DNA from: Candidatus Marinacidobacterium sp.
Lineage (GTDB): Bacteria > Acidobacteriota > Vicinamibacteria > Marinacidobacterales > Marinacidobacteraceae
NCBI GenBank assembly: GCA_965204755.1
Contig: OZ242011.1
Coordinates: 480,001-544,000, forward strand
DNA length: 64,000 nucleotides
Direction: 5' to 3'
Positions 25,067 through 64,000 of the stretch are shown here, piece by piece; positions within the stretch are counted from its first letter, which is position 1, and every line of letters begins with the position of its first letter. A program made the translations under genes and the position numbers. Below the pieces are notes generated by a model. The model worked only from the letters and a program-made list of their open reading frames with translations. It was not told the origin of the DNA and did not search any database.

Positions 25067-25111
25067 CGCCCGCCAAGTATAGAAACGGCGAACGCCGATC
25101 GCCGCGAGCGG

Positions 25112-26257
25112 CTACGCGCCGGCGGTTTCCTCGTCGTCCGGCGGCGGCGCGTTCTCCAGGATGCAGTCCATCAGGCTGGGAATCCCCGGCTCCCAACTCA
25201 GCGTCCCCTTCGCCTGCCAGACGAAACCGAGATGTTCGAGCGCTTTGGCCGCCTCGCCGATACCCGGCCCGCCCCCGCCGCTTCGCGCGATGGCCCGGTC
25301 GAGCGCGGCGTCGCTGAGACGGGCCTCGTCCTGAAACGCCGCCGCCACCGCCCGCGCCGCCGGAAGCAGGGCCCTCTCCTTCAATTCCCGGTAGCGGTCG
25401 GAGTAGTAGCGGTTCCGCCGGATCTCGAACTCCCCGGCGGCTTCCTCCGCGACGGCCATCGTCACCGAGCCCGCTCCGCCGCCGGCCCCGCGCACCCGGT
25501 CCCACACCGCCCGGCCCCACAACTGGACGAAGAACGGATACCCGTGACTCTCCCGGACGATGTGCGCCAGCGCCTCCTCCTCGACGCCGATCCCGTCGTC
25601 GGCCAGCGGCCGGAGGATTGCCTCCCCGGCCGCCCTCTCGTCCAACCGGCCGAGCGGGAGTTGCCTGGCCCGGTTCCAGAAAGACGCTTCCATTTCGGAG
25701 AGCCGAGCCCGCAGGTCGGGCGTCCCGGCGAGGACCAGCAGGAACGGCGCCTCGCTCCCCGCCGCCTGCGCGGCGTTCAGCAACCACTGCCCCACCTCCG
25801 GCTTCAGCGTATGCGCCTCGTCCAACAGGATCAGCAGGGGTTTGGCCCTCGCGCGCGCCTCGAGCGCCTCCGCGAGCAACAACGGCCGATCGTCGCCCCG
25901 GCGCAGCGAAACCCCCACCCCGGCCACCGAGACGCTCTCCGGCGCGATCTTCCGCAGCCACGAACCGAGCCCCAGCCGCGCCACGAAGTCGCCCGGCGAC
26001 GGGATCTCCGACCCGACCAACCAATGCGCGTCCAACGCGCCGTCCGCGGCGGCCTCCCGCTTCGCCCACCGGAGCAGCGCCGTCTTCCCGTTACCCCGCG
26101 GCCCGTAGAGGAGGATTTCGCCGGACGCCGACCGGCCGCGCCGAAGAGTGTCGAAGTACCTGCGGAACAGCGTCTGCTCCTCTTCCCTTCCGGCCAGGTA
26201 GGGAGGCGGCCTCCCGGTGCCGGGCTGGAACGGGCTGAGTCGGCTCGGAACGGGCAT
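25112..26257 (-). CDS. P-loop ATPase, copy 2 (paralogue of 23921-25066)
   Basis: Same motifs and the same 1146-nt length. Identical upstream sequence TATACTTGGCGGGCG-ATG. Confidence 0.85.
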   Translation of the reverse strand: MPVPSRLSPFQPGTGRPPPYLAGREEEQTLFRRYFDTLRRGRSASGEILLYGPRGNGKTALLRWAKREAAADGALDAHWLVGSEIPSPGDFVARLGLGSWLRKIAPESVSVAGVGVSLRRGDDRPLLLAEALEARARAKPLLILLDEAHTLKPEVGQWLLNAAQAAGSEAPFLLVLAGTPDLRARLSEMEASFWNRARQLPLGRLDERAAGEAILRPLADDGIGVEEEALAHIVRESHGYPFFVQLWGRAVWDRVRGAGGGAGSVTMAVAEEAAGEFEIRRNRYYSDRYRELKERALLPAARAVAAAFQDEARLSDAALDRAIARSGGGGPGIGEAAKALEHLGFVWQAKGTLSWEPGIPSLMDCILENAPPPDDEETAGA

Positions 26258-26303
26258 CGCCCGCCAAGTATAGGAACGCCGAACGCCGGTCCGCCCCGAG
26301 CCG

Positions 26304-26490
26304 CTATCCGCCGATGTCGTCGGCGTCGTCCGGCGGCGGCGCGTTCTCCAGAATGCAAGGGCCGCAGCGCTCGAACCGGCCCTCCTCCCGAAACGCCGCC
26401 GCCACCGCCCGGCCGCCGGGAGCAACTCCCTCTTCGCCAGTTTCCCCGGTAGCGGTCGAAGTAGCGGCGATCCCGCCGGATATCGAAAGT
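26304..26490 (-). pseudogene. Degenerate 3' remnant of a third ATPase copy
   Basis: Fragments FDIRRDRRYFDRY / LLPAA..AVAAAFREEGR / CILENAPPPDD match the C-terminus of the two intact copies, with frameshifts and an internal deletion. Confidence 0.7.
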
Positions 26491-27400: not shown

Positions 27401-30400
27401 CTAGAACCGGAGGGTGCCGCGGAGGCCGAGGCGGAGGTAGGCCGGGGTGTCGCTGTACGAGGCGCGTTCGCCGGACAACTCCAGGTCGAACATCCGGCCC
27501 GGGCTCAGGGGGTCGCCGTAGCGGAGGCCGAAGCGCACCCGGTTCCGGCCGTCGCCGGCGCCGTAGTCGGTGAACGGGGTGAAGACGCCGGGGAGCGGGC
27601 CGGCGGGGAAGCCGTAGCCGAACCGGGCCTCGAAGGCGCCGCCTTCCGGACGCCGGGCGGCGGCGGCGCCGGCGCCGGTGAACAGGTTGGCGTCCGGGCG
27701 CCAGAGCGCGTCCTGCCCGCCCCGGCCGCCCCAGGTCGGGGCCAGCGAGAAGGACAACCCCGCGCCGTCCTGCCTCGGCTGGAGGAGCGCCGTCAGCCCG
27801 GCCCCCCGCTCCCGGAAGCCGTCCTCGCTGTGCGCCGCCAGCATCCGGCCCTGCGCCTCCAGGCGGAACCGCGTTCCCGCCGTGAGCCGCAGCCCGCCGG
27901 CCAACTCCAGGCCCCGGCCGGTCACTTCGGTGTCCCCGTCCGCCCGCGCCGACACCGTCGCGAACGGCTCCACCGCGCCGCCCCCGCCGAGACCCTGGCG
28001 GAACCGGGTCTCCACGCCCGCCCGCAGGCGGAAGGCCCGCGCTTCGAGGCCGCCGGAGACGCCCGCGCCGGACGCGGTGGCCAGCCGGCTCAGCCCGGCG
28101 TCCCCCCGGACCGCCAGTTCCAGGCCCTCGCCGGCGCCCGCCACCCGCAGCCGCAGCCCGACCAGGCCCATCCCCAGCGACAGGGACTGCGACTCCCGGC
28201 CCCGTTCGCCGCGGTCGGTTTCCAGGGTCCCGGAACCCGCGCCGCCGATCGCCCAGAACTCCGTCCGGTCGGTGGGCCGGACGCTGGCGTAGGGCAGGAC
28301 GCTGGTGATCCGCGCCGTGGTCTCGCCGGTCCCGGTGGTCTCCCCGGCGAACGAGTAGTCCGCCCGGCCGAAGGTCCGGGCGACCGCCAGCCCCGCGAGC
28401 CAGGAGTCCCCGGAGACATCCGCGCCCACATACGGCGTCCGCAGGTCGCCGGAGTAGGCGGCGCCCGCCGCCGGGGCGCCTTCGAAGGACACCAGGTCGC
28501 CGGCGCCCCACAGGCCCCAGCGGAGGCCGCCGTCGTCCGCGCCGCCCGTCCCGGAGCGGCCGCCCTCGTCGTCCTGCCCGAAAGTCAGGGCGAAACTGTC
28601 CCGCACCGGGTCGAAGCCTTCGAGCGACGCCGCGTTCTCCAGCGGGCGCTCGCCCCGGAACAGGGTCTGGACGCCGAGCGCGGCGTTCTCCAGCCCGCCG
28701 ACCGGCAGGCCGCCGTTCCCGCCGGAGAGCGCGGTCATCGTCAGCCGGCTGCTCCCGCCCCGCGCCTCCATCCGCCGCCCGATCACCTCGGAAGCGCTCG
28801 ACAGGAAGCCCCGGCCCATCCCGGTGAGGGTCTCGGCGACCACCGCCGCCTCCGCCGGGTCCGCCACCACGGTTACCGCGAAGGACTGCTCCGCGCTCCC
28901 GGCGCGGTTCGACGCCGTAACCGTCACCGAGGCCTCGCCTTCGGTCAGCGGCGACACCGAGACCACCGCCGCCCCGGTGAGCAGCGCCGACGCCACCCCC
29001 GGCGCGGACGACGAAGCCGCGTAGCGCTCCGCCCCGGAGAAGGCCGCCGCCACTTCCACCGGGTGCGGATCCGCGCCGGCGATCAGCGTCAGCGCCGGGA
29101 GCGTCCCCACCGCCCGCGGCGGCGAGATCCCCCGCACCGGGTGCTCCGGCTGGTCGGCGAGCGCCGGGTGCGACAGGTCCACCCGCTGGCCGGGAACCCC
29201 GGTAACCGCCGAAGGAACCGCATCCTGCGGGACGGAGACGCCGTTCTCGTCCCAGTCACCTTCGACCACCCGGTAGGCGAAGCGCAGCGCCGCCGTCCCC
29301 GCCCCCGACCGGTAGCCCGCCGGGCGAGCCGAGAGCCCCACCGTCAGCGGCAGCGACGGCGTCCCGGACACCCGCGCCGGCGAACTGAACTCCACCGCCA
29401 CCTCCACGGTCTGCCCCACCCGGTAGGCGACCCCGTCCGGCGGGGTGGAGGAGATCCGCACCTCCCGCACCGTCAGCGGGTCGATCCCCCGCACCCGGTG
29501 CTCCGCGCCGCCGGAGACCCCCCGGTGGCCGAGGGCCACCCGCTGGCCCGGCGCGCCGGAGACCGCCCCGGCGAGGGTGTTCGCGGTCACCTCCACCCCG
29601 TCCTCGTCCCAGTCCGGGATCTCCACCGGGTAGCCGAACCGCAACTTCGCCGTGCCCGAACCGGCCAGGTAGGCCGCCGTCCGGGGCGAGCCGCCCAGGG
29701 CCAACTTCAGGCTCGCCGCGCCGCCCACCCGGGCCGGGCCGCTGAACGCCACTTCCACGGTGATCGTCTCGCCGGCCCGGTAGAAGGCCCCGTCCGCCGG
29801 GCTGGAGACCAGCGAGACGCCGGTAACGGTGAGCGCGGCCTCCGGCGGGGGCGGGGGCGGCGGCGCGGTCCGGGCGTCCACCCGGTGCGCCGGGTCGTCG
29901 TCGAGGCCCCCGTGCGCCAGCGCCACCTCGTCGCCGCGCAGCGTGCGGATCTGCCCCGGGCGGAACGGGTTGGGCGGGACCGAGATCCCGTCCCGGTCCA
30001 GGTCGCCGGCGGCCACCCGGTAGCGGAACACCACCCGGGCGCTTCCCGCGCCTTCGCGGTACGCCGCCGTCCGCGCCTCGTCGCCCACCGTCAGCGCCAG
30101 CCGCTCCCGCCGGTTGACGGACACCGCCTCGCTGAAGGCCGCCAGGAAGACCACCGTTTCACCCTCCCGGTAGGCGTCGCCGTCCGCCGGCGCCGAGACG
30201 ATCGACAGGGAGACGACGCGCGGCTCGCCGGCGGCCGGGGCGCCGCCCCCGCCTCCGCCGCCGCCCCCGCCGCCGCCGGGGTCGCTCGCCGGGGTCGGGG
30301 GCGCCAGCGCGAACTGGCCGTCGTCGGCCACCGCGTGGACGCCCAGCGCCAGGTTCGCCGGGTTCGGGTTGGCTTCCTGGGCCGCCACCCCGTCGGTGAT

Positions 30401-57400: not shown

Positions 57401-59206
57401 GAACTCGACGGTTACCGAGATCACATCCCCGGCGATGTAGATGCCGCCCTGCCGGTTGCCGAATCCGTCCAGCGTTACGCCGGTTACCGTCGGCGCGACG
57501 GTGTCCCGCCCGTCCACCGTGAAGTCCGAGTCGTCGGTAACGGTGTAACTTCCGAGGTCGAGCGTCGCGTCGTTGGCGGTGTCCCGGATCGTCCCGCCGT
57601 TGAGCGCGAGCGCGGAGGCGGCGACGCTGATCCCGTCGGAGTCCCGGTCCGCGGTTACCACGGTGTAGGAGAACACCAGGGAGGCGGTCCCGCTGCCGGA
57701 GGCGTAATCGGCCTGCTTCGGCGTCGAGCCGATGGTCAGCGCGACCTGCGGCATCCCGGTTACGGTTACCGCTTCGCTGAAGGTAACGGTTACCGAGATC
57801 GCGTCGCCGGCGGTGAAGGAGCCGCTCGGGCCGGTCCCGGTTCCCGAGAGCGAGAGGCCGGTAACCGTCGGGGCTACCGCGTCCGCGGCGTTCCCGTTCA
57901 CCGCCGGGCCGGTGTCCGTGATCGCGGTCAGGGTCAGGGTCGCGTCGTTGGCGCTGTCCCGGATCGTCCCGCCGTTCAGCGTGAGCGCCGAGGTCCCCAC
58001 GCTCAGCCCGCCGGTGTCGGAATCCGCGGACGCGACGGTGTAGCGGAACACCAGGGAAGCCGTGCCGCTGCCGGAGGCGTAGTTCGCCTGCTTCGTCGCC
58101 GAGCCGATGGTCAGCGCCAACTGCGGCGTCCCGGTAACGGTTACCGTCTCGCTGAAGGCAACGGTCGCCGCGATCACATCCCCGGCGCGGAAGACCCCGC
58201 CCGCGGCCGTCGCCGTCCCGGAGAAAGTCACCCCGGTAACCGTCGGCGCAACGGCATCCGCCCCGTTCCCGTTGACGATGAAGTTCGCGTCGTTGGTTCT
58301 CGCGTGGGTACCGAGGCCGAGCGCCGCGTCGGTGGCGCCCTGCTTGATGGATCCGCCGTTCAACGACAATTTCGTGACGCTGATCCCGTTGGTGTCCTCG
58401 TCGTTGCCTCCGACGGTGTAACCGAAGACCAGCGAAGTCGAGCCGCTGCCGGAGAGGTAGGACATCTCCCGGTCCGTGGCCTCGCCGACGATGAGTTCCA
58501 GGACCGGCGTTCCGGTAACGGTAACGGCCAGGCTGAAGGTTACGGTCGCGCGGATCTCATCCCCCTGGATGAAGGCGCCGCTCGCGCCCTGCGCGGAACC
58601 GGAGAGGGACAACCCGGCGACCTTGGGTTGGTTGAGGTCCCCGTCCACCACCTTGTCCCCGTTGGTGATCGCGTGGCCGGAGAGACTCAGGTTCGCGTTG
58701 ACGGAGTTGGCGGTGATCGAGCCGCCGTTCAACTCGAGCGCCGACGCGCCGACGCTGACGCCGTCGGAGTCTTCGTCCAGCAACCGCACGTTGTAGGTGA
58801 AGTAGAGGACGCCGCCGCTGACCCGCGAGTAGACGGCGTAGCCCGTCGCGGTCCCGATGCCCAGCGCCACCCGCGGCAAGCCGGTAACGGCGATGAGGGT
58901 GTTGTTGAAGTGGACCTCGACGCCGATGGAGTCGCCGGCGACGAAGACACCGCCGGCGCCGCTGCCGGTCCCGGTCAGCCGCACCTGGTTCACGGTGGGC
59001 GCGATCAGTTGCCCCGCCCCCGCGGGCGCGGCGCCGGGGCCGCCGAGAGAGAGGGCGAGGGCGAACAGCAGCGAACCGCCGACAGCCAAACCCCGGAGAC
59101 CGCGGAGTCCGGGGAAACCCCGGAAGCCGGGGATACCCCGGAAGCCGGGGATACCGGGGAAACCCCGGAAGCCGCGGCCCCGGCGGCGCCGGCCCGCCCG
59201 CGGCAT
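27401..59206 (-). CDS. Giant repetitive surface adhesin / autotransporter-like protein (at least 10,601 aa)
   Basis: An uninterrupted 31.8 kb ORF. An Arg-rich n-region and hydrophobic signal (LLFALALSL...AGA) precede tandem ~129 aa beta-rich repeats, a Gly linker, three shorter repeats, one further Ig-like domain and a helix. The amphipathic beta-strand C-terminus ends in RGTLRF. The true start may be ATG 59526 (see findings). Confidence 0.92.
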   Translation of the reverse strand: MPRAGRRRRGRGFRGFPGIPGFRGIPGFRGFPGLRGLRGLAVGGSLLFALALSLGGPGAAPAGAGQLIAPTVNQVRLTGTGSGAGGVFVAGDSIGVEVHFNNTLIAVTGLPRVALGIGTATGYAVYSRVSGGVLYFTYNVRLLDEDSDGVSVGASALELNGGSITANSVNANLSLSGHAITNGDKVVDGDLNQPKVAGLSLSGSAQGASGAFIQGDEIRATVTFSLAVTVTGTPVLELIVGEATDREMSYLSGSGSTSLVFGYTVGGNDEDTNGISVTKLSLNGGSIKQGATDAALGLGTHARTNDANFIVNGNGADAVAPTVTGVTFSGTATAAGGVFRAGDVIAATVAFSETVTVTGTPQLALTIGSATKQANYASGSGTASLVFRYTVASADSDTGGLSVGTSALTLNGGTIRDSANDATLTLTAITDTGPAVNGNAADAVAPTVTGLSLSGTGTGPSGSFTAGDAISVTVTFSEAVTVTGMPQVALTIGSTPKQADYASGSGTASLVFSYTVVTADRDSDGISVAASALALNGGTIRDTANDATLDLGSYTVTDDSDFTVDGRDTVAPTVTGVTLDGFGNRQGGIYIAGDVISVTVEFSEPVTVTGTPRVALTVGSATQQADYASGSGTASLVFRYAVQSGDSDSNGISIAADALALNTGTIADAASNNATLGLGTHLITDNTLFQVDGNAADNVGPTVTGVSLTGSGMGSSGAFIAGDVITVTIEFHEAATVTGTPQVALSIGSATQQADYASGSGTTSLVFRYTVQSADSDADGISIAAGALALNTGTIVDGANNNAALALGTHAVTNDGDFTVTGGGTDATGPVVTGVTLSGTGQGASGVFVAGDEISATVTFNEAATVGGTPQLAITVGENDRQADYASGSGTTALVFRYAVVSGDTDANGVSVGASALTLNGGSIADAANNTATLALGTHALGDDSAFTVNGSAADIVAPRVTGFSLGGTGTAASGVFRAGDPITATVTFHEAVTVTGTPQVELTVGSAARQAAYASGSGTAALVFRYAVASGDTDANGISVAASALTLNGGTIRDSANDAALDLGTHAVTDDSDFTVNGSAAASAAAPTVASLNFSSGASGPGGVLTSGDELRVLLTFNRTPYAVTGTPRLALTIGTETRYATYSSHGGFVWFTYTVQVADEDANGLSIGASALELNGGTITAGGLGVNLDLTGYTVTDGDHVVDGDAGAPWVFGMEVPATGRGAGGAFIAGDAIEVRLTFTQPATVTGTPRVAMTVGTTPRYASYVSGSGTTVLVFRYTVVAADTDNDGISIAGNALGLNNGTIGDTDGAATLNLIRYAFTNDGNLKVDGAGTDTTGPRVSGVSLSGIGNRAGGIFIAGDVITATVEFNEPATVTGAPRLALTIGAATRQAGYVSGSGTTSLVFRYTVAAGDTDPNGLSVAADALTLNGGMIRDAANNNAALDLGTRAVTDAADFRVDGNAADNRGPAVTGVSLSGTGMGASGVFIAGDILAVTVEFHEAATVVGTPQVALTVGANTRQAAYASGSGTKSLVFRYTVVSGDTDANGVSVAASALTLNSGTIRDAANNPAALDLGTHALGDDSDFTVAGGGADATGPVVTGVSLSGTGQGAGGVFVAGDEIEATVTFNEAATVNGTPQLALTIGTTDKQADYASGSGTTSLVFRYTVVAADTDANGVSVGATALTLNGGTIRDSANNNATLGLGTHALGDDADFEVNGSAADATAPTVTGVTVSGTGRGSGGVFIADDVLEVTVAFSEPVTVTGTPQVALTIGATDRQADYASGSGTASLVFRYTVVAADVDANGISIGASALTLNSGEIEDAANNDATLGLAAHVITDGDQAVNGAASEAVRPTVTGLTLGGVPNGGAVIFIAGDLIVATVTFSEPVTVVGTPQLALGIQSGTRQADYVSGSGTASLRFTYTVQSSDSEPFGYDVGASALTLNGGTIRDAANNNAILDLGSHAVSQSDWRVSGGNSDIVGPKVIGLSLSGSGMGAEGVFIGGDAIEAAVEFHETVTVVGAPQLAFMVGTATRQAAYVSGSGTASLRFRYTVVATDADTDGIDIGASALTLNGGTIRDGSNRNASLGLGSHAVSSAADFKVDGGGVDSSGPAVTGVTVGGEAHGANGVFIAGDTIEVTVEFSEPAIVTGTPRLALTIGAATRQADYASGSGTTSLVFRYTVAAADTDANGLSIGATALALNGGTIEDAADNDAALGLGSHAVTDGDAVVDGSASDTVAPTVAGVTLSGTGQGASGAFIAGDVIAVTVDFSESVTVTGAPQVALTVGANPRQAAYASGSGTISLVFRYTVASGDTDANGVAVGASALTLNNGTIKDGANNDAALGLGTHALADDANFRVTGGGTDAVGPRVTGLALSGTGIGANGVFIAGDAISVTVSFDEPVTVAGTPQVALTIGGATKQADYASGSGTASPTFRYLVADGDTDPDGIGVGASALALNGGSIADAAGNNAALALGTHAIARDAAFIVDGPAADAVAPTVTGVTLSGAGSGASGAFIAGDALTVTVAFSETVRITGMPQVALTVGAGTKQAAYAFGHGAASLSFRYLVVTADHDANGVAVGASALALNGGTIADAAGNNAALALGTHAIADDSDFTVDGDGTEVIAPTVAGLTLSGTPRGANGVFIAGDAIEATVAFSETVTVVGTPQVALTIGTTPRQAAYASGSGSASLVFRYTPVSTDADPDGISVGASALALNGGTIRDAAGNNAALGLGTHAVTDDADFTVSGNAAADTAGPTVQAVTLSGRGNKADGAFIAGDRIEVRVEFNETVLVTGTPQVALTIGAATRQAAYVSRGANSTVFRYTVAAADEDTDGVSVGASALTLNGGTIADRAGNAAALGLGTRAVTNDNLFRVDGDASDGRAPRVTGLRLSGTGTGASGAFIAGDRLGVVVEYDEPVTVTGTPIARLTIGIASRDAGYASGSGTTTPVFEYAVVSTDADANGVTVDTAGLALAGGTIADAAGNAATLTFGTHTVTDDADFVVTGSGTDTGGPTVTGVTLSGTGNGADGVFIAGDDLTVTVAFREPVTVTGTPRAALAVGTRTRYANYVSGSGTTSLSFRYRVAWADADADGISVGASALGLNGGTMKDAADNDAALGLGAHAVTNDADFAVNGRGADAAGPQVVGVSLAPVPPAPQGANGVYVDRDRIRITVEFNEEAVVTGRPRLNVGVGTSTAWAVYNSGSGTRALVFHFNVGYYRSEDANGISVTATGHDLVGATIADRAGNAGTLDLGRHAVTDDSRFVLDGDAGDAFPPDIVGITWGGRANGARGAFIAGDVIEFVVRTSQPIFVDRLERDPQLVLDLGGVRYADYASGDETTALRFRYEVQTADATTSLSLGSPKFALHGGRLVDRGVNNLRDPGGYTPVGPKVVDGDGADARAAAVTGLTLASDGPGNGAAGALIAGDRIRATVTFSEAVAVTGSPRLALTVGTATRYAAWVSATGRRRTHQFVYTVASGDDDANGVSVGTGALSLNGGTIRDRGNHAAALGLGVHAITDGEIVVDGDGTDARAPTVVGVTVSGIGEASEEGGTFTQGDVIVVEVEFDEPVTVTGTPQVALTLQNGTRQAAYSSGSGTTTLEFRYTVGSSDLDQNGIGIGPSALTLNGGTIEDDAENDAALGLGTHVRSQYRGFLISFGARSDRRPPAVTGLTLSGDAQGPGGVFIPDDEIVATLEFHEAATVTGTPQLALVIGATTRQANYSSGSGTTSLVFRYTVVASDSDVNGIGVGASALSLNGGTIADAGNRRHTSVTLENALADHAVTDDPDIIVDGSLTDTSNPRVTGVTLSGRGSGGNGIFRAGDAVTVTIEFNERVTVTGTPQVALTVGANTRQADYASGSGTTSLAFRYPVVSADRDANGIAVGASALTLNGGTMADGAGNAAALALGTHAVADAADFVVNGAAPAAPVVNDVQLTGRGAAQGAGPSFIAGDVIRVEVGFDSAIHVLGAPQLALTIGADTRQAAYDSSASGVAYLIFSYTVQSADADSNGVSIGASALNLNGGSIQGSARQAADLRIPAEHTITDHRDYVVNGSGSDVVGPHMTRAIVRNFGEGANLSFIAGEVVVFEATFNESVTVVGTPQLRTNLANMDYHSGSGTTTLVFRYTVQATDSAANLTIYTPAFSYPTGASIRDAGGNDASTASPRTTRGRGVNGGGTDVRSPGITGVSWSGRGQGAGGAFIAGDDIEVTVEYHEPVTVSGTPQFQIAVDATIRRAGYVSGSGTTSLVFRYAVVSGDADADGIYPYGLILNGATMADTAGNAAEILLLSHANVRGPVVNGAAADALGPAVAGVTLSGTGHGASGVFVAGNEIEATVEFDEAATVTGTPQLELTIGANARRADYVSGSGTTALVFRYAVVSADADANGVSVGATALTLNGGTIEDAAENDALLGLGTHALGDQGGFIVNGSASDVLAPTVTGYSLSGTGQGASGVFIAGNEIAVTVEFSEPVTVIGTPQVTIGIGANNRPAAYASGSGTASLVFRYAVVTGDADADGVSVAASALMLAGGQIRDAAGNAAALSLGTAVTNDSDFIVTGSGTDVTVPTVAGVTLSGTGQGANGVFRAGDVIRIRVRFSEPVTVTGTPLLSLTLASGGAAAGYSAADSSGADLVFRYTARAADRDDDGISVGASALGLNGGGIADAAGNAAALGLGAHAVTDAAGFAVNGSAADALPPTVTGVSLSGIANGAGGVFRVGDVIRIRVRFSEPVTVTGTPLLVLAVGSGSGSAGYSAADSSGADLVFRYTVRVADLDNDGIGIGASALDLNNGTIVDGGNNAASPGLGAHAVANAAGFAVNGGASDGVGPTVTGVRLSGSGMGANGVFTAGDRISVTVDFHEAATVTGTPQVALTVGTTARQAGYVSGSGTASLVFRYTVVWADTDADGVAVGASALALNGGTIVDAAMNAASLGLGDHALADAAGFIVNGSAADTGVPTVTGVAVSGEARGPNGVFIADDVLEVTVDFNEPVRVTGTPRVALTIGGSTRQADYASGSGTASLVFRYAVVSADTDSNGLSIGATALALNDGTIRDEAGNAASLGLGSHAITDGEAVVNGSAADTVAPTVVGVSASGIGQGASGAFIAADVIRIRVRFSESVTVTSVPGGPALAITLASGSTFASYSASESSGADLVFRYEVQSAQADSNGISVGASALGLHGAAIADRAGNAAALGLGAHAFSNDGDFVVAGSGPDAVGPTVTGLSLSGTPQGARGIFTAGDRISVTLEFHEAATVTGTPQVALAVGSAIRQAGYVSGSGTTSLVFRYAVAAADADADGIGIGASALSLNGGTIRDASSNDAPLGLGPHALAAAPGFRVNGAAADAVGPTVTGLSVGGEARGQGGVFIAGDTIEVTVAFNEAVTVTGAPRVALVVGTTTRYAAYASGSGTASPVFRYPVVAADADADGVSVGPSALSLNGGTIRDAAANDASLGLGVHAITDGEAVVDGTAADAIPPTVTGLALAGPPPGPQGASGVYIAGDVIEATVTFSESVTVTGAPQLALTVGANIRQAAYASGSGTTSLAFRYTVVAADTDANGVSVAAGALTLNSGTIADTNGNAAMLGLGTHVLGNQSGFTVNGAATDGVGPSVTGVSLSGTGQGAGGVFIAGDEITVTVEFGEAATVTGEPQVALTIGADTRQAGYVSGSGTTSLVFRYTVVSGDTDGNGISVGAGALTLNSGTIEDAANNNAALDLGTHAITDASGFRVAGGGSDVVAPRVAGVRLVAGSPQGTAGAYIAGDEITAAVEFSEPVTVTGTPRLALTVGPNLRQAGYVSGSETTTLLFRYAVVTGDADPNGVAVGASALTLTGGAAIRDAAGNAAALGLGSHAVSDDGAFTVAGSASDTASPTVTGLAIAEVAQGVFAGTPTFIAGDEIIVTVAFSEPVTVTTTGGTPQVALTIGTMTRQAGYVSGSGGTSLEFRYTVVAADPNGSLVIGASALALNGGTIADGAGNNAALGLGTHAVASGSWFVQPARADAVVPTVTGLTLSAPAPGAQGADGAFIAGDAIEVTVAFSEPVTVAGAPRVALTIGTATKHAEYVSGSGTASLLFRYTVVSGDADPNGLSIGPSALGLNSGTIRDAGNNNAALSLGSHVVSDAAGFAVAGSGSDVTGPRVSGVTVSGEARGAMGTFIAGDTIVVTLEFDDAATVGGTPRVALTIGSAVRYADYASGSGTTSLVFRYTVVAADSDSDGLSVGPSALSLNGGTIRDARGNDAALGLGDHAVTDGDAVVDGSATDAIAPTVTGAALSGSAQGAGGVFIAGDEITVTVDFSETVTVTGMPQVELTIGANARQAGYVSGSGTTSLVFRYTVAAADTDANGIAVAASALGLNNGTIRDAASNDAALGLGTHALADDSAFTVNGSAADGRAPAVTGKALSGSAQGAGGVFIAGDEIKVTVDFDEEVTVTGMPQVTLYIGANNRLADYVSGSGTTSLVFRYAVVSADADADGISIGASALGLNGGAITDGTNNAALSLGTAVVNAAGFAVNGSAPDRVAPRVAGASLSGSGQGANGVFIAGDAITLTVEFDEEVTVSGTPRAALTIGNAVRYAGYVSGSGTTSLSFRYAVAAGDRDSNGISVGASALDLNGGGIADAATNAAALGLGDHVITDAAAFEVNGSAADAVAPTVVGVTLSGSAQGASGVFIAGDAISVTVDFSEPVRVTGTPQVALTVGTGPKQAGYVSGSGTASLVFRYTVVAADADSNGIAVGASALALNGGGIDDDAGNAASLGLGTHAISDAADFTVNGGAADGRSPAVAGVTLSGSAQGAGGTFIVDDVLEVTVEFDEPVTVTGAPQVALTIGTPPTKPAAYVSGSGTASLLFRYTVVAADADANGISVGAAALTLNSGTIKDAANNDAALGLGTHAITDAADFTVDGAAGDGRAPAVAGVSLSGSAQGASGVFIAGDEIEVTVEFDEVVTVTETPRAALRIGSATRYASYVSGSGTASLVFRYAVARGDRDPNGIGVSSLDLNGGTIRDDAANNAALGLGDHAITDDADFEVNGSAADGVAPTVTGVTLSGRAQGAFGVFRAGDEITATVEFSEPVTVVGTPQLEFTVGAAPKQADYASGSGTSSLVFRYTVAAGDTDANGISVGASALTLNGGTIRDAAGNNAARGLGTHAVSDASGFTVNGAAADAIGPFVTGVSLSGVGQGQDGRFIAGDAISVTVSFNEAASVMGTPQVELTIGSTPRQADYASGSGTTELVFRYAVVAGDTDADGVAVAASALGLNGGTIRDAANNAASLGLGTHALGDAADFRVNGGGADVRRPEVAGVTVGGTARGASGLFIAGDVLEATVEFDEEVTVTGTPALRLTVGVNTRRADYASGSGTASLVFRYTVVSGDRDSNGIGVSGSALFLNGGAIRDGSNNPANLGIGDHAFTESGAPVDGSASDAIPPTVTGVTLSGAPQGGSAIFIAGDEIAATVEFSEPVTVVGTPQLALTVGANIRQADYASGSGTTELVFHYTVVSGDTDSNGIAVGASALGLNGGTIRDLVGNAATLDLGTRALGDQSGFTVNGAATDMVAPTVAGVSLSGSGQGASGTFIADDVIEATVTFSEPVTVTGTPQLALTFGAVEKQADYASGSGTASLVFRYTVVTADADANGLSVGASALALNSGMIRDGASNDASLGLGSHAVTDASGFRVNGSGPDVRRPSVTGVTVSGEARGENGVFIADDVLEVTVEFDEAVTVTGTPRVWLDVGPSLRRADYASGSGTASLVFRYTVVRADRDSNGIGVGSSALATGGGAIRDGSNNPANLGLGDHAITDGDAVVDGSAADAIPPTVTGVTLSGAPQGGASLFIADDEIEVTVEFSEPVTVTGTPQVEITVGANARQAGYVSGSGTASLLFRYTVVTADTDSNGVSVGASALALNGGTVEDAAGNTATLDLGAHALGDRSGFTVNGAASDMVAPTVTGVSLAGTGQGENGTFIADDVIEVTVGFSEPVTVTGTPQLALTFGAVDKQADYASGSGAASLVFRYTVVTADADANGLSVGASALTLNSGMIRDAANNDAALGLGSHAVTDASDFRVAGSGADVRGPRVSGVSLSGSAQGANGVFIAGDEIAVTVEFDEVVTVTGTPRVWLTVGSRTRAAAYASGAGTAALVFRYTVVAADSDGNGISVRTSALDRAGGRIRDASSNDAALDLGDHAITDDANFEVDGAAADAVRPTVTGLALSGSRPQGANGIFIAGDRIEVTVEFSEPVTVTGSPQVALTLGSGAGQAVYSSGGGNTLVFRYTVQSGDTDANGLSIGTTALAANGGTIRDAAGNDAALGLGTHAVSNDGDFRVNGSAADAVAPRVTGLLLSGTAQGANGTFIADDVLTVTVYFDEAITVTGTPQVEITIGNQARQADFVSGNRRTSLTFRYTVASGDADANGISVAAGALALNGGTMTDGANNNAALGLGMHAVTDDAAFEVDGSGADVVAPTVAGVTVAPRQPPSGQSGTLIAGDEVSVTITFSEPVEVTGSPRVALTLATGTRYADWVSAAGRRTEHEFRYAVVTGDDDSNGLSIGTNALRTNGGTIRDRGNNNARLSLSGHEISDGEVVVDGDGADVRAPTVAGVTVSGSAQGASGVFIAGDDLVVTVEFDEAVVVTGAPQVEITVGSSARQAAYASGSGTTALEFRYTVVTADTDANGVSVGASALALNGGTIEDRAGNDAALALGTHVISNGDAVVTGSGTDVRVPRVVRAALAASGNGDGGAFIEGDPIRVDLHFDEPVTVTTTGGTPRLALTVGVRTRYAERIAVAGAGGEVVSFRYLVQAVDDAPAGVRVGASALGLNGGTIADGASNAAVLGLGAVDFSEVERYAVDGDGEDARAPFVTGMSVSGRRRGGPDTFIAGDVIEVEVRFHKPVRVSGRPQVALGLTSGTRQAAWAAAGSDASRQLFRYTVVTADEDADGLGIAANALQLNGGTIRDNRNQAANLDLTGYEIANESASKVDGDGTDPAPTADTFTFSGTGEGASGAFIAGNVISVAAEFSEPVTVTGAASLSFFVGTTSRSAAYRAGSGTDTLSFAYVVQSADADTDGLALGVSPLGGTIEDDRGNAPDQSGSRTVVGANAIRVDGNGADVRAPTVRGVSISAAFPGNGLDGAYISGDTIEVVVEFSEPVRVTGTPQLALGIGAGTRQADYAAGSGTPALSFRYRVALADSDADGISIGAAALALNGGAIVDRASTPNNANLSLAGHAITDGDAVVSGGGSDTRAPTVVGLSVSAAWPGNGANGVYIAGDVIQVEVRFSEPVSVSGTPQVALTVGNARRPARWHSSSLDRRLQRFRYTVQRSDEDADGVGIGSSALTPSGGRIRERVGGGKDADLRLGGHAFDADPEIVVDGDGADVVAPTVIDVTVSSAYPGNGAGGAYIAGDVVAVGVSFSEPVTVTGTPQLALTIGSATRQADYASGSGTSTLVFRYSVVAADADANGLGIAASALALNGGTIVDGGGTAAALGLGDHAFANDADLPVAGSASDDRQPTVVGVVLSGRGSGAGGTFAPGDSIGVEVRFSEPVAVSGMPLLRLTLGGGTSARAVTSGVLRRGQGGTPGMEVVTARYTGQTDDLRGLLFEYRVLPGDEDPNGISIGSGALDLNGGSITDGVAAQEANPNPANLALGVHAVADDGQFALAPPTPASDPGGGGGGGGGGGGAPAAGEPRVVSLSIVSAPADGDAYREGETVVFLAAFSEAVSVNRRERLALTVGDEARTAAYREGAGSARVVFRYRVAAGDLDRDGISVPPNPFRPGQIRTLRGDEVALAHGGLDDDPAHRVDARTAPPPPPPPEAALTVTGVSLVSSPADGAFYRAGETITVEVAFSGPARVGGAASLKLALGGSPRTAAYLAGSGTAKLRFGYPVEIPDWDEDGVEVTANTLAGAVSGAPGQRVALGHRGVSGGAEHRVRGIDPLTVREVRISSTPPDGVAYRVGQTVEVAVEFSSPARVSGTPSLPLTVGLSARPAGYRSGAGTAALRFAYRVVEGDWDENGVSVPQDAVPSAVTGVPGQRVDLSHPALADQPEHPVRGISPPRAVGTLPALTLIAGADPHPVEVAAAFSGAERYAASSSAPGVASALLTGAAVVSVSPLTEGEASVTVTASNRAGSAEQSFAVTVVADPAEAAVVAETLTGMGRGFLSSASEVIGRRMEARGGSSRLTMTALSGGNGGLPVGGLENAALGVQTLFRGERPLENAASLEGFDPVRDSFALTFGQDDEGGRSGTGGADDGGLRWGLWGAGDLVSFEGAPAAGAAYSGDLRTPYVGADVSGDSWLAGLAVARTFGRADYSFAGETTGTGETTARITSVLPYASVRPTDRTEFWAIGGAGSGTLETDRGERGRESQSLSLGMGLVGLRLRVAGAGEGLELAVRGDAGLSRLATASGAGVSGGLEARAFRLRAGVETRFRQGLGGGGAVEPFATVSARADGDTEVTGRGLELAGGLRLTAGTRFRLEAQGRMLAAHSEDGFRERGAGLTALLQPRQDGAGLSFSLAPTWGGRGGQDALWRPDANLFTGAGAAAARRPEGGAFEARFGYGFPAGPLPGVFTPFTDYGAGDGRNRVRFGLRYGDPLSPGRMFDLELSGERASYSDTPAYLRLGLRGTLRF
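29110..59000 (-). repeat. About 75-80 tandem ~387-bp intragenic repeats (Ig-like domains with a DxDxNG loop)
   Basis: Consensus APTVTGVTLSG...FIAGD.I.VTVEFSEPVTVTGTPQ.ALT.G...RQA.Y.SGSGT.SLVFRYTV...D.DANG.SVGASAL.LNGGTI.D.A.N.A.L.LG.HA. The count is estimated from span divided by period. Confidence 0.93.
59090..59175 (-). repeat. 9/18-bp microsatellite encoding GFRGIP-like repeats in the signal n-region
   Basis: CCCCGGAAGCCGGGGATA-type units translate as GFRGFPGIPGFRGIPGFRGFPGLRGLRGL. Confidence 0.75.
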
Positions 59207-59241
59207 CAGCCCCGGCGCGGCCCCGCCGCCCCGCCGCGAAT

Positions 59242-59280
<39 letters not shown>

Positions 59281-59457
59281 CCTTCGTCTCATCGCTGCGA
59301 AGCGGGGTCGCGCGGCGGGCGGTTAGCCGGCGGGCGGTCGTCCGGCGGTTGCGGGCGGCGGTCTCCGCCGGCCGCGCCGCTTCCTCCGAGCCTCCCGGCG
59401 AGCGGCGCCCGCGGCGCCCGCCCCCCGGAGGGAAACCCCGGCTACGCCGGGAATTCC

Positions 59458-59480
59458 GGGGGGGGGGGGGGGGGGGGGGG
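59458..59480 (-). repeat. Homopolymer tract C23 on the coding strand (G23 on +), distal
   Basis: Read directly from the sequence. Its flanks are homologous to those of the proximal tract. Confidence 0.9.
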
Positions 59481-59613
59481 TAGCCGTCGTCTCATCGCGG
59501 AGCGGGGCCGCGCGGCGCGAGGTCATTGCTGGTGGCTTCCGGGAGCGGTGCTCCGGTCGCCGCCGCCGGGCCGCTCCGGCGAGCGGCTTCGGGGCGGCGA
59601 CAGCCGGGCTGCG

Positions 59614-59655
59614 AGGATACCGGAATCGGCGACCGGATCGCATCCGCGATTCCGG
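59614..59655 (-). promoter_or_regulatory. Putative promoter of the giant gene with an adjacent inverted repeat
   Basis: A -10-like TATCCT at 59619-59614 is the same hexamer found upstream of the B12 riboswitch. A 9-bp inverted repeat CCGGAATCG/CGATTCCGG lies at 59620-59628 and 59647-59655. Confidence 0.45.
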
Positions 59656-59685
59656 ACGGCGGTCGGAGGCGGCGGCGCGGCGGCC

Positions 59686-59757
59686 GGCGGCGTTCCCGGC
59701 GCCGCGGTCGGAGGAGTTTCCGGCGCGGTGGTCCGGGGAGTTTCCGGCGCGGCAGCG
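59686..59757. repeat. Three imperfect 24-bp tandem repeats
   Basis: GGCGGCGTTCCCGGCGCCGCGGTC / GGAGGAGTTTCCGGCGCGGTGGTC / CGGGGAGTTTCCGGCGCGGCAGCG. Confidence 0.65.
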
Positions 59758-59764
59758 CCGGGGG

Positions 59765-61429
59765 CTACATCCCCCAAACGAGGATGGGGAGACTCTCCGG
59801 CGAGCCGCCGGCGGGGGCGTCGGCGCCGTCTCCGGGCGCGGCTTCCGCGGCCTCCGCTGCTTCCCAGCCGAGTTCCGAGCCCGGGGCGGATACCCGCCGC
59901 GCGGCGAGTGAGCGCCGGAAGATCTTCTCCTCCCAGGTCTTCCCCTCGTCCTGGTCCATCACCACCAGGTGCCCCTCCTCCGCGCCGCACCGATCCAGGT
60001 ACGCCGCCGTCTGCGCCACCCCCTCCCGGACTACCGTTTGGAGGCCGTCCCGTTCCCGCCGAACCTTGCATTCCACGACGAAGCGCTGCGTCCCGCCGTC
60101 GTCCCGCCGCCATTCGATCAACAAGTCGGTGCGCCCCCGCCCGAGCCCGTACTCCCGGACGATCCGCCCCCCGGCGTTCACCACCCGCTGCAGGAACGCC
60201 TGCAGCAACACCTGCACCGCCGCCTCCCGAACGGTGAAACCCTGCGACCACGCCTCCGAGTGCTCCCGGAAGAACTGCTGGAACGCCGTGAGCAGGTGCG
60301 CGACATCCAGACTCCCGTCCGCCCGCCGGAAACTCGCGGTATCGCCCCTCATTTTCATTTCCGCCCGCGCGGACAGGAAGCGGGGAATCACCTCCCGATA
60401 GATCGGATTCGCGATCTCCAGCGGATCGTCCGCCTTGGTCAACCCCAAGTCCGCCACATAGGAGAGGTCGTCGTCTTCCTCGTCCTCAAGGAACTCCACG
60501 CGGCCGGCGAGGATCGGCTCGATCACCCGCCGAACCCGCTCTTCGTTCAACTTGTCCCCGATCTGCCGGAAGTGGGTCGGGCGCGCCAAGATCAGCCGAT
60601 CCCGCGCCGCCTCCACCGCCTCGGGGCCGATCTCCCGGGTTCGGTCGCGGCCGGCCTCGTCCTCGAAACAGGTCTCGTCGCCCAACGCGTTCACCAGCCA
60701 AGGTTGGCCGGCGGTCGCGTTCCAGATCTCCTCCACCGCTTCCGGAGCGAAACGCTGACCCGTCTCCTCGGTGTGTTGACCCAGCAGTTCCTCCACTTCC
60801 GCCCGCGAGAAGTCTCCCAGTCGCAGGGAGTGCTTCACGATGTTGAACGGGCTCCCCGTCTCGAGCGGGTAGTCCTGCACATCGCGGAGTCCGCAGAACA
60901 CGATGCTCCGCGGGAAGCGCTCCGGGCGGTCCCGGTAACCCGAACGCAGTTGGGTCAACAACGCAAGGAGAATCCGTTCCCTCAGTCCGTCCGCCTCGTC
61001 CAGCAGGAGCACCAGGCGCTCGTCGCCGGACTTCTCCGACCAGAACATCAGGGCCTCCCGCAGGCCGCCGGCAGGGCCGATGTCGGCCAAGGCTCGCGGC
61101 CAGATCTCCCGCAGGGATTCGTCGCCGAGCGCCGTCGCGGCGCCGGTGGCGATCGCGCCCAGAATGCCGCGAACGGCGACATCCAGGTCGTCGCCGGCCG
61201 CCCTCGCATCTTCGCAATTCGCATAGACGCACCGCCAGCCGCGGCCGTTCAGGTGCTCCTGGAGCGCGCCCAGCACCGAGGTCTTCCCCGTCTGGCGGGG
61301 GGCATGGAGGACGAAGTAAGCCCGCTTTTCCACCAGCCGGACGATCCGCGCCAAGTCCAACCGGCTCAGCGGCGGGATCGTGTAGTGGACTTCCGGATCC
61401 ACCGGCCCGGCCACATTGAAGTCGCGCAC
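59765..61429 (-). CDS. AAA-like ATPase with C-terminal PD-(D/E)XK nuclease domain, copy 1
   Basis: FNVAGP, Walker A HAPRQTGKTS, Walker B LLLDEAD, SPFNI, GQPWLVN, IANPIYRE and nuclease motif REYGLGRGRTDLLI...VECK. Confidence 0.88.
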   Translation of the reverse strand: MRDFNVAGPVDPEVHYTIPPLSRLDLARIVRLVEKRAYFVLHAPRQTGKTSVLGALQEHLNGRGWRCVYANCEDARAAGDDLDVAVRGILGAIATGAATALGDESLREIWPRALADIGPAGGLREALMFWSEKSGDERLVLLLDEADGLRERILLALLTQLRSGYRDRPERFPRSIVFCGLRDVQDYPLETGSPFNIVKHSLRLGDFSRAEVEELLGQHTEETGQRFAPEAVEEIWNATAGQPWLVNALGDETCFEDEAGRDRTREIGPEAVEAARDRLILARPTHFRQIGDKLNEERVRRVIEPILAGRVEFLEDEEDDDLSYVADLGLTKADDPLEIANPIYREVIPRFLSARAEMKMRGDTASFRRADGSLDVAHLLTAFQQFFREHSEAWSQGFTVREAAVQVLLQAFLQRVVNAGGRIVREYGLGRGRTDLLIEWRRDDGGTQRFVVECKVRRERDGLQTVVREGVAQTAAYLDRCGAEEGHLVVMDQDEGKTWEEKIFRRSLAARRVSAPGSELGWEAAEAAEAAPGDGADAPAGGSPESLPILVWGM

Positions 61430-61496
61430 GGATTCAGTATGGCAGAACCGGGGGACTGCGCGCGAGGAGGCCGGGCGGCGAGAGCGCCCGGAAGGC

Positions 61497-63146
61497 CTAC
61501 ATCCCCCAGACGAGGATCGGGCGGGTCTCGGGAGCGGAGGCGTCGGGGCGGGGTTCGTCTTCGGGCGCGGCTTCCGCTGCTTCCCAGCCGAGTTCCGAGT
61601 CCGGGGCGGATACCCGCCGCGCGGCGAGCGCCCGCCGGAAGATCTTCTCCTCCCAAGTCTTGCCGTCGTCCTGGTCCATCACCACCAGGTGCCCCTCCTC
61701 CGCGCCGCAGCGATCCAGGTACGCCGCCGTCTGCGCCACCCCCTCCCGGATCACCGTCTCCAAACCGTCCCGCTCCCGGCGAACCTTGCATTCCACCACG
61801 AAGCGCTGCGTCCCGCCGTCGTCCCGCCGCCACTCGATCAACAGGTCGGTGCGGCCCCGCCCCAGCCCGTACTCCCGCACGATCCGCCCCCCGGCGTTCA
61901 CCACCCGCTGCAGGAACGCCTGCAGCAACACCTGCACCGCCGCCTCCCGAACGGTGAACCCCTGCGACCACGCCTCCGAGTGCTCCCGGAAGAACTGCTG
62001 GAACGCGGTCAGCAGTTGCGCGACATCCAGACTCCCGTCCGCCCGCCGGAAACTCCTCGCGGCGTCGCGCTTCACTTCCGTCTCGGCGGGGACGGACAGG
62101 AGGCGCGGTATCACTTCCCGATAGATCGGGTTCGCGATCTCGGCTTCCCCGTCCGCCTTGGTCAACCCCAGGTCCCTCACATAGGCGAGGTCTTTCCTCT
62201 TGAGATCGAGCCATCCGCGACCGGCCAGGACCCGCTCGATCACCTGCCGAACCCGCTTCTCGTCCAACTTGTCCCCGATCTGCCGGAAGTGGGTCGGGTG
62301 CGCCAGGATCAGCCGCTCCCGCGCCGCCTCCACCGCCTCCGAGGCGATTTCCCGGGTCCGGTCGAGGCCGGCCTCGTCCCGGAAACAGACCTCGTTCGCC
62401 AAGGCGTTGACCAACCACGGCTGCCCCGCCGTCGACTCCCAGATCCCTTCGATCGCGGCGGCGGCGAAACCCTGCCCGGTCTCCTCGGTGTGCTGGCCCA
62501 GCAGTTCCTCCACCTCCGTCCGCGAGAAGTCTCCGAGACGCAACGACTCCTCCACGATGTTGAACGGGCTCCCCGACTCCAGCGGATAGTCCTGCACATC
62601 GCGGAGTCCGCAGAACACGATGCTCCGGGGGAAGCGCCGCGGACGGCCCCGGAAGCCCGAGCGCAGTTGACTCAGCAACGCGACGAGAATCCGTTCCTCC
62701 AGTCCGTCCGCCTCGTCCAAAAGCAGCACCAGGCGCTCGTCTCCCGCTTTTTCCGACCAGCGCCGGAGCGACTCCCTGAATCCGCCCAAGGCGCCGACCT
62801 CGCTCAGCAGCGGCGGCCAGATCTCGCTCAGGGACTCATCTCCCAGCACCGTCGCCGCGTCGGAGGCGATCGCCAGCAGCACCGCCCGGACCGCCGCGTC
62901 CAAATCGTCGCCGGCCGCCCTCGCATCTTCGCAACTCGCATAGACGCAGCGCCAGCCGCGACCGTTCAGGTGCTCCTGCAGCGCGCCCAGCACCGAAGTC
63001 TTCCCGGTCTGGCGGGGGGCATGGAAGACGAAGTAGGCCCGCTTTTCCACCAACCGGGCGATCCGGGCCAAGTCCAGCCGGCTCAGCGGCGGGATCGTGT
63101 AGTGGACTTCCGGGTCCACCGGCCCGATCACATTGAAGTCGCGCAC
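61497..63146 (-). CDS. AAA-like ATPase / PD-(D/E)XK nuclease, copy 2
   Basis: Paralogue with the same motifs. GTG start at 63146 follows the same TGCCATACTGAA element. Confidence 0.88.
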   Translation of the reverse strand: MRDFNVIGPVDPEVHYTIPPLSRLDLARIARLVEKRAYFVFHAPRQTGKTSVLGALQEHLNGRGWRCVYASCEDARAAGDDLDAAVRAVLLAIASDAATVLGDESLSEIWPPLLSEVGALGGFRESLRRWSEKAGDERLVLLLDEADGLEERILVALLSQLRSGFRGRPRRFPRSIVFCGLRDVQDYPLESGSPFNIVEESLRLGDFSRTEVEELLGQHTEETGQGFAAAAIEGIWESTAGQPWLVNALANEVCFRDEAGLDRTREIASEAVEAARERLILAHPTHFRQIGDKLDEKRVRQVIERVLAGRGWLDLKRKDLAYVRDLGLTKADGEAEIANPIYREVIPRLLSVPAETEVKRDAARSFRRADGSLDVAQLLTAFQQFFREHSEAWSQGFTVREAAVQVLLQAFLQRVVNAGGRIVREYGLGRGRTDLLIEWRRDDGGTQRFVVECKVRRERDGLETVIREGVAQTAAYLDRCGAEEGHLVVMDQDDGKTWEEKIFRRALAARRVSAPDSELGWEAAEAAPEDEPRPDASAPETRPILVWGM

Positions 63147-63217
63147 GAGTTCAGTATGGCAGAACCGGGGGGCGGCCCGCGCTCGATGACGCCGGGCGGC
63201 GAGAGCGCCCGGAGGAC

Positions 63218-64000
63218 CTACATCCCCCAGACGAGGATCGGGCGGGTCTCGGGAGCGGAGGCGTCGGGTCGGGGTTCGTCGTCGGGCGCGGCTTCCGCTG
63301 CTTCCCAACCGAGTTCCGAGTCGAGTTCCGAGTCCGGGGCGGACACCCGCCGCGCGGCGAGTGAGCGCCGGAAGATCTTCTCCTCCCAAGTCTTGCCGTC
63401 GTCCTGGTCCATCACCACCAGGTGTCCCTCCTCCGCGCCGCAGCGATCCAGGTACGCCGCCGTCTGCGCCACCCCCTCCCGGACTACCGTTTCGAGGCCG
63501 TCCCGCTCCCGCCGAACCTTGCACTCCACGACGAAGCGCTGCGTCCCGCCGTCGTCCCGCCGCCACTCGATCAACAGGTCGGTCCGCCCCCGCCCGAGCC
63601 CGTACTCCCGGACGATCCGCCCCCCGGCGTTCACCACCCGCTGCAGGAACGCCTGCAGCAACACCTGCACGGCCGCCTCCCGCACGGTGAACCCCTGCGA
63701 CCACCACTCCGAGTGCTCCCGGTAGAACTGCTGGAAGGCGGTCAACAGTTGCGCGACATCGAGACTCCCGTCGTCCCGCCGGAAACTCGGGCCCCCGCCG
63801 TCGAACCGATCGTCCCCCGGAGCGGACAGCAGGCGCGGAATCACCTCCCGATAGATCGGGTTCGCGATCTTCAACGGCCCGGTCGCCTCGACCAGCCCCA
63901 AGTCCCTCACATAGGAGGAATCGTCTCCGTCTTGCGGAAGGTACTCCCCGCGGCCGGCGAGGATCGGCTCGATCACCCGCCGCACCCGCTCTTCCTTCAA
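63218..64000 (-). CDS. AAA-like ATPase / PD-(D/E)XK nuclease, copy 3 (5' part lies beyond the window)
   Basis: The C-terminal ~260 aa are homologous to copies 1 and 2 and end ILVWGM. Confidence 0.85.
   Translation of the reverse strand: MKEERVRRVIEPILAGRGEYLPQDGDDSSYVRDLGLVEATGPLKIANPIYREVIPRLLSAPGDDRFDGGGPSFRRDDGSLDVAQLLTAFQQFYREHSEWWSQGFTVREAAVQVLLQAFLQRVVNAGGRIVREYGLGRGRTDLLIEWRRDDGGTQRFVVECKVRRERDGLETVVREGVAQTAAYLDRCGAEEGHLVVMDQDDGKTWEEKIFRRSLAARRVSAPDSELDSELGWEAAEAAPDDEPRPDASAPETRPILVWGM

Follow-up and report, generated by a model that had tools for sequence, protein, structure and literature searches.

The stretch of DNA analysed here (the window) comprises 64,000 nucleotides (nt), to which all positions refer unless a contig is named, and belongs to a genome of Candidatus Marinacidobacterium sp. 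that is assembled as a single contig of 3.98 Mb with 71.7% GC (G000, contig C1). A 32-kb gene on its reverse strand runs from ATG 59206 to 27401 and encodes 10,601 amino acids (aa) or 1.04 MDa, in line with the product of about 1 MDa announced in an earlier sequence-only reading. Upstream of this ATG, a cassette bearing a long poly-C tract occurs twice. Both tracts are pure and lie where that reading had placed them, with 23 residues in the distal and 32 in the proximal copy (G23 and G32 on the shown strand; Table 1), and the duplication is real, the copies matching by 76-79% over 58-66 nt at a spacing of 200-205 nt, tract included, with an additional 19-nt match at a spacing of 211 nt. The sequence-only reading had suggested that these features could form an AND-gated frameshift switch of an adhesin. 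The layout is a real, conserved and unusual arrangement of a known mechanism, the slipped-strand switch, and is weighed here as one that would set several levels of a giant surface protein.

The lengths of the distal and proximal tracts, both taken modulo 3, are denoted n1 and n2. The frame of the giant gene is open upstream through both tracts, and the frame relations given in the sequence-only reading hold. ATG1 with C23 meets the stop TAA 59325-59323 after 67 codons, and with C21 or C24 plus C32 it reads through into the giant open reading frame (ORF); the other wrong frame leaving the distal tract is closed at TAG 59444-59442; and ATG3 with C32 gives a leader of 28 codons whose TGA overlaps ATG4. 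One spacer frame is accordingly open, one is closed immediately and one is closed 33 nt before ATG3, and in codon score the open frame ranks first among the three, yet falls below true coding DNA (-0.19). Additional to that reading are the finding that ATG3 is itself in frame at a proximal tract of 30 or 33, a second distal start (ATG2), a paralog that shares the double cassette, and a genome-wide set of tracts.

Table 1. Features of the giant gene and its upstream region (window positions; n1 and n2 as defined in the text)
Feature	Position	Strand	Remark
Putative -10 hexamer TATCCT	59614..59619	-	only promoter-like site seen
ATG1 (MTSRRAAPLRDETTAT-Pn)	59524..59526	-	full length only if n1 = 0 and n2 = 2
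ATG2, start of the distal cassette copy (MRRRL-Pn)	59493..59495	-	full length only if n1 = 1 and n2 = 2
Distal poly-C tract	59458..59480	-	23 in the assembly
Spacer, 180 nt	59278..59457	-	between distal and proximal tracts
ATG3, start of the proximal cassette copy (MRRRL-Pn-GNSRR)	59290..59292	-	full length at n2 = 0, any n1
Proximal poly-C tract	59246..59277	-	assembled length 32; a 33-residue tract would be ON from ATG3
TGATG, where the off-frame ATG3 leader stops on ATG4 (59206)	59204..59208	-	ATG4 in frame, independent of the tracts
Arg-rich n-region, hydrophobic h-region, probable signal-peptidase site	59012..59206	-	read from the translation
About 75 tandem Ig-like beta-sandwich repeats of about 129 aa	28877..59011	-	translation and structure model
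C-terminal helix and outer-membrane beta-barrel, autotransporter-like; stop codon	27401..28879	-	structure model

As is typical of a contingency locus, tract length sets the reading frame and the outcomes differ by n modulo 3. Beyond the full-length combinations listed in Table 1, the ATG3 leader ends on ATG4 at n2 = 2, and at n2 = 1 it is the distal read-through that ends there. If the nine length classes were equally frequent, five would be ON with all three tract-led starts in use, three with ATG3 only, and one or two under a strict AND. The suggestion that the gene is kept OFF in most cells does not follow, since 5/9 with three starts exceeds the 3/9 of a single tract; its companion, that several expression levels are produced, is the best fit. 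Likewise, the rule that both tracts must be in phase and that slips cannot compensate is exact for the two distal starts, at the window and at its paralog, and would hold for the locus as a whole only if ATG3 were silent, for the distal tract would be bypassed by ATG3 in three of the nine classes (n2 of 30 or 33 in actual lengths) and by ATG4.

The 5' ends of large paralogous surface-protein genes, which the sequence-only reading had singled out for comparison, bear directly on this layout. The same double cassette, with C22 and C24, precedes a 112-kb paralog of about 37,400 codons (G000:C1:847143-959365, reverse strand), which is interrupted by five one-base deletions, all in the same direction, and reads without a stop when joined across them. 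The window and this paralog have in common the putative -10 box with its upstream flank, its distance of 87 nt to ATG1, and ATG1 itself, which persists as ATG ACC in the two distal cassettes and a third, tract-less paralog and is gone from both proximal copies. In all four cassettes an ATG precedes the tract by 15-16 nt, and the tract-less paralog has one at the corresponding position. At the 112-kb paralog the distal starts fall into the same classes as in the window, and the proximal ATG shares their frame, hence n2 = 2 is always needed; its proximal copy carries a TAA in the frame equivalent to that of ATG1. Re-initiation at ATG4, proposed from the TGATG overlap, is a possible route in the window, where the overlap was confirmed, but the arrangement is not conserved at the 112-kb paralog, where the stop lies 38 nt before the equivalent ATG. 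The spacers have diverged between the two loci, the post-tract sequence is closer to its own locus partner than to the other paralog, and the sequence ahead of the distal tract is better kept between them than that ahead of the proximal tract. The two duplications may have arisen independently or been homogenised later, the data being compatible with both. With ATG1, ATG2 and the 87-nt promoter spacing kept at both paralogs and both tracts pure, the distal unit is, as judged by its conservation, not debris.

The tract-less paralog (G000:C1:3836804-3843451, reverse strand; 2,215 aa), which has neither a tract nor a tract pair, offers a glimpse of the likely starting point. A strong Shine-Dalgarno (SD) sequence (-10.3 kcal/mol) precedes the ATG that matches the cassette ATG, and no Met matches ATG4; the cassette ATG is therefore probably the ancestral start. 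Read with X at a single break, the protein begins MGRRPPPRR and continues into a signal peptide resembling that of the window, and the tract probably grew from such proline codons. The break affects one base of a CCC run within the signal sequence and represents either an assembly error or a real inactivation. A reading of this gene as locked in translational coupling, through a stop overlapping a TTG, was dropped because the leader frame aligns with the main frame of the window up to this break, which is a one-base event like the five deletions of the 112-kb paralog. A protein scan of genome contigs with the first 200 aa of the giant protein confirmed no relative. A separate surface-protein ORF of 6,600 codons (G000:C1:202982-222868, forward strand) has a signal-like start, lacks an in-frame ATG across the 270 initial codons shown, and has an out-of-frame TTG with short C5/G5 runs upstream.

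The tracts belong to a set that extends over the genome and the family. In the genome, 37 C/G runs measure 14-34 nt while none falls between 10 and 13 nt, which argues against chance as the origin of the window tracts, and pure repeats as long as C23 and C32 stand far above background, as in known contingency loci; MutS and MutL genes are present, which fits the gap in run length between 9 and 14. Among the 37 tracts, only two pairs lie less than 1 kb apart (180 and 155 nt), and these are on the two largest repeat genes. Many tracts sit a few codons past the starts of exported-protein genes, and others in promoter spacers, leaders and genes. C/G runs of at least 13 nt were found in 22 of the 24 other family genomes versus 3 of 16 in sister families, counts inflated in the family by junk in fragmented assemblies; 12 of the 13 family assemblies of 1-3 contigs have 1-50 runs. 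In the relative G010, 29 of the 42 tracts examined lie 10-22 nt after an ATG, in lipoprotein genes, and 11 of these 29 are in frame, near the one in three expected from random phase. A class-wide search for two runs of at least C12 lying 60-400 nt apart returned 14 of 301 genomes, G000 included; two of the 25 loci retrieved are those of G000, most of the rest contain N gaps, contig ends or numerous runs, and no start-plus-tract pair at a surface gene was found among the five read by eye. A metagenome scan with the distal start motif gave 62 matches, taken as chance, with no C run exceeding 5 in the 60 nt that follow any of them.

The window stretch is present in sequencing runs that include sponge and marine metagenomes, with no RNA run listed among them, and both tracts are found in three of four runs (X1, X2 and X7, from three studies, X1 possibly being the source of the assembly; X11 covers neither tract). 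Contigs of these three runs cover the spacer with 0-1 differing letters, show no listed indel in 59289-59445, enter both tracts and, if colinear, reach 20-25 letters past the flanks into each. Those of X1 and X7 break in both tracts, and one X2 contig (depth 5) spans the distal tract, counting 239 letters against 241 in the reference; the tract is probably 21 long in this contig, which has no listed deletion beyond the masked repeat zone. A 22-long distal allele suggested by contig ends in X1 was discounted, as such ends could also result from reads failing in G runs. The assembly itself drops single bases in runs, as seen in the five deletions of the 112-kb paralog, and so C32 could be C33 and the gene ON from ATG3. 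The exact lengths 23 and 32 are thus not secure, and the assembled state need not be that of the cell.

The protein encoded downstream displays an anatomy that would suit a surface fibre. Features of a Sec signal peptide (Arg-rich n-region, hydrophobic core, Ala-rich site) were recognised by eye in the translation, and a 9-nt tandem repeat in the n-region (59090-59177) varies in frame between strains, by +9 in X2 and -9 in X7. The model of a single repeat is a confident beta-sandwich (predicted local distance difference test, pLDDT, 97.9) with immunoglobulin (Ig)-like domains as top structural matches (Z 9.0, then at most 7.2); invasin, FdeC, InvE and S-layer domains are among the matches at Z 5.6-6.6, values that speak for a shared fold and no more. 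The Foldseek top matches of the last 492 aa are Hbp, EspP, BrkA, EstA and NalP (E 2.5e-6 to 5.2e-5; TM-score to the query 0.33-0.38; model pLDDT 65), and the barrel model (27404-28879) has about 19 strands versus the 12 usual in autotransporters, its C-terminal strands being of low confidence. No Pfam or NCBIfam barrel domain matched the window protein, and PF03797 is present in 2 of 10 homologs. Pfam scans of the first and last 2,000 aa identified no ligand-binding tip domain, and matches to PepX_C and RabGGT on the repeats were taken as noise, with no significant single stretch; no beta-helix passenger was seen. The term adhesin would thus describe what this modelled anatomy suggests. AAA-ATPase genes flank the giant gene, two per side (59765-63707 and 23921-26425), and the upstream one has many look-alikes in the sequencing runs. 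An EF-P gene, suiting a poly-Pro product, is present in the genome, with closest matches (78-90% identity) labelled Acidobacteriota, some of them Vicinamibacteria or Ca. Marinacidobacterium. The sole efp match of the genome lies at 19403-19954 on the reverse strand, about 7.5 kb beyond the end of the giant gene, a proximity that may be chance.

Slipped-strand control of the giant surface protein is well supported by these observations, and the form of it favoured here, with confidence about evenly balanced between right and wrong, is a two-tract, multi-start, multi-level switch in which the proximal tract acts as master. The ancestral gene, to judge from the tract-less paralog, would have started at the cassette ATG, and its short proline run would have become a pure poly-C tract. 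A tandem duplication of about 205 nt at the 5' end would then have placed a second start-plus-tract unit upstream, under one promoter, after which replication slippage would alter the length of each tract independently. At n2 = 0, ATG3 would deliver the full-length protein. At n2 = 2, the distal starts could supply it given a suitable n1, which is where the AND logic of the switch lies, and re-initiation at ATG4 may add leak; at n2 = 1, no tract-led start would reach the gene directly. Use of the proximal start would probably also be tuned by distal ribosomes, whether these terminate early or 33 nt ahead of ATG3. Cells of a population would then make the 1-MDa surface fibre at several levels, in place of a single rare ON state. 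Use of the MRRRL frame is suggested by the two differences between the 15-nt stretches of the window copies, which are silent in that frame and change residues in the frame of ATG1. A scan of the locus for sigma-70 consensus promoters and terminators found no full promoter and no terminator, and an Rfam search of 58900-60000 gave no match.

Several points weigh against this multi-level switch. None of the three tract-led ATGs of the window has a good SD, that of ATG1 being weak (-3.5 kcal/mol), that of ATG2 not usable (-1.7) and that of ATG3 absent (0); about half of the roughly predicted starts in the genome also score weaker than -4. The argument from silent changes rests on two bases, and the distal starts would yield a signal peptide of some 160-170 aa with two poly-Pro runs. 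The better conservation of the sequence ahead of the distal tract favours the distal starts and hence a strict AND. The length difference in the distal tract comes from a single bridging contig of depth 5, from another strain and with the position of the gap hidden, and is no proof of switching. Start site, transcript and protein are, moreover, predicted here from the sequence.

Among the alternatives, a serial two-key frameshift gate, built at the two largest repeat genes by duplication of a start-plus-tract unit, with the proximal start active only with ribosomes coming from the distal unit, is conceivable if rather doubtful. Should it be true, two hypermutable runs would jointly set the rarity of the megadalton fibre, and poly-C in the wrong phase could cause Rho to terminate transcription prematurely. 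A strict AND gate, in which only ATG1 and ATG2 are used or ATG3 requires ribosomes delivered from upstream, so that one or two of the nine classes are ON, is unlikely. It draws on the truth table of the distal starts, identical at both paralogs, with full length only at n1 = 0 or 1 and n2 = 2; on the distal start region and promoter spacing as the best-conserved part of the locus; on the missing SD of ATG3; on one off-frame that ends at or just before the proximal ATG at both loci (33 nt before it, and a TGATG overlap); and on the placement of double cassettes at the two costliest repeat genes. Against it, both paralogs retain the proximal ATG, which corresponds to the SD-led ancestral start, a second tract would bring at most a three-fold gain, and the open frame and the late stop each arise in 19-24% of spacer shuffles, in a test chosen after the pattern had been seen.

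The locus would be simpler if only ATG3 and the proximal tract mattered and the distal cassette were a neutral leftover of duplication. Such a single-tract switch would match the family pattern of an ATG, a few codons and poly-C exactly, the spacer scores below true coding DNA, and relatives hold duplicated tract-bearing units of no clear joint role (425 nt apart in G001, about 870 nt in G005). It is nevertheless improbable, since the layout stands at two paralogs whose spacers have diverged but whose distal ATGs and promoter distance are conserved, the distal tracts are long and pure, and the layout is kept in other samples.

Poly-C is a strong substrate for Rho, and control could instead act on the transcript, with translation starting at ATG4 and the poly-C of a leader of about 400 nt serving as Rho-loading sites or RNA structure, gated by translation of the leader. 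A Rho gene is present at 717383 (a second Rho-like gene, G000:C1:1134075-1135184, scores below the curated cut-off), the tracts are predicted to be largely unpaired (0.6 and 0.74), and some tracts of G000 and G001 lie where frame fusion is impossible, such as ahead of a UDP-glucose-dehydrogenase-like and a TetR-like gene and in promoter spacers. The HMW1A adhesin of H. influenzae is, in the accessible part of the source, controlled by a repeat-containing 5'-untranslated region (PMC12721329). This reading is judged quite improbable, however, as the position of ATG4 is not a Met in the tract-less paralog, ATG4 is by folding the least accessible of the four ATGs (0.22 unpaired), and the ATG before each tract is conserved; nor did folding show poly-C pairing that would hide ATG4 in a length-dependent manner, the predicted accessibility hardly shifting with tract length. 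That the tracts are artefacts of sequencing or assembly, as the one-base deletions in the 112-kb paralog, the poly-C/G junk common in fragmented relatives and the departure of annotated from true G-tract lengths reported in part of PMC9187656 might suggest, is hardly credible, since contigs of three studies enter both tracts and one spans the distal tract, which largely secures their presence, the tracts fall non-randomly at gene starts and promoter spacers, and such errors could shift lengths but not create the layout.

Tracts elsewhere in these genomes display other arrangements. Other duplicated tract-bearing units are those of L004 (G005) and L031 (G001), and a 650-nt G run in L033 (G006) resembles a gap-filling artefact. 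In both G000 and G001, poly-C precedes a UDP-glucose-dehydrogenase-like gene and the membrane-protein gene beside it (L137/L046, G001:C1:3281297; G000:C1:3690851 and 3694402), where the main frame is closed and frame fusion is therefore impossible; in G001 an ATG-led leader at n = 24 stops overlapping the ATG of the gene, making this a candidate switch of translational coupling, and G000 has no near ATG there. Poly-G between TTGAC(A/T) and TA..(G/A)T-like boxes, in spacers of 20-25 nt (L034, L042 and L043 of G001; G000:C1:2818746), marks candidate promoter-spacer switches. In C orientation, the flanks of 162 tract contexts from G000 and relatives, which include paralogs and hence are not independent, are biased toward T at -2 (109/162), G at +1 (110/162) and A at +2 (98/162).

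The start codons of the Haemophilus influenzae licA gene lie in different frames and give graded output. As in the window, several starts lie upstream of a slipping repeat, three of them ahead of one repeat according to the accessible portion of PMC2992063; licA, however, is a small enzyme gene with one tetranucleotide tract, whereas the window has two serial mononucleotide tracts, each with its own start, by duplication of the 5' end. The sabA gene of Helicobacter pylori, in the part of PMC2715451 available, has one promoter-region and one coding tract and so resembles the window as an outer-membrane adhesin under two repeat tracts, with on/off control plus tuning, but the two window tracts follow the putative promoter, and each can determine the frame. 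The sortase-pilus genes of Bifidobacterium breve switch at single G-tracts, as far as the available text of PMC9187656 goes, and share with the window a homopolymer between signal and mature part, frames joined by slippage and a host-associated non-pathogen as bearer; they differ in having one tract per gene and a sortase-anchored product, unlike the autotransporter-like fibre predicted here. Structurally, the models liken the giant protein to type Va autotransporters (EspP, Hbp, BrkA, NalP) in its N-terminal signal and C-terminal helix and barrel, and to the Ig-repeat adhesins invasin, FdeC and InvE in its Ig-like stalk, although with about 75 repeats, 10,601 aa and a modelled barrel of about 19 strands, not clearly 12, it differs from both. 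Literature of partial coverage, mostly without subscription papers and supplements, yielded no report of two serial coding homopolymers arising by gene-start duplication or of such tracts in sponge symbionts.

Most accounts of slipped-strand switching concern pathogens and gut commensals and a single tract per gene. A start-plus-tract unit repeated in series would show how the ON fraction, or the number of levels, of a costly protein can be reshaped by a 200-nt duplication. If the deletions in the 112-kb paralog are assembly errors, that gene would be among the very large bacterial ORFs, for which 85,804 aa is given as the record in the accessible part of a preprint (bioRxiv 10.1101/2023.11.21.568195). 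Genes with such tracts are liable to receive wrong start codons or pseudogene calls in annotation, and the tract set as a whole points to a large repertoire of contingency loci in uncultured, sponge-associated Acidobacteriota.

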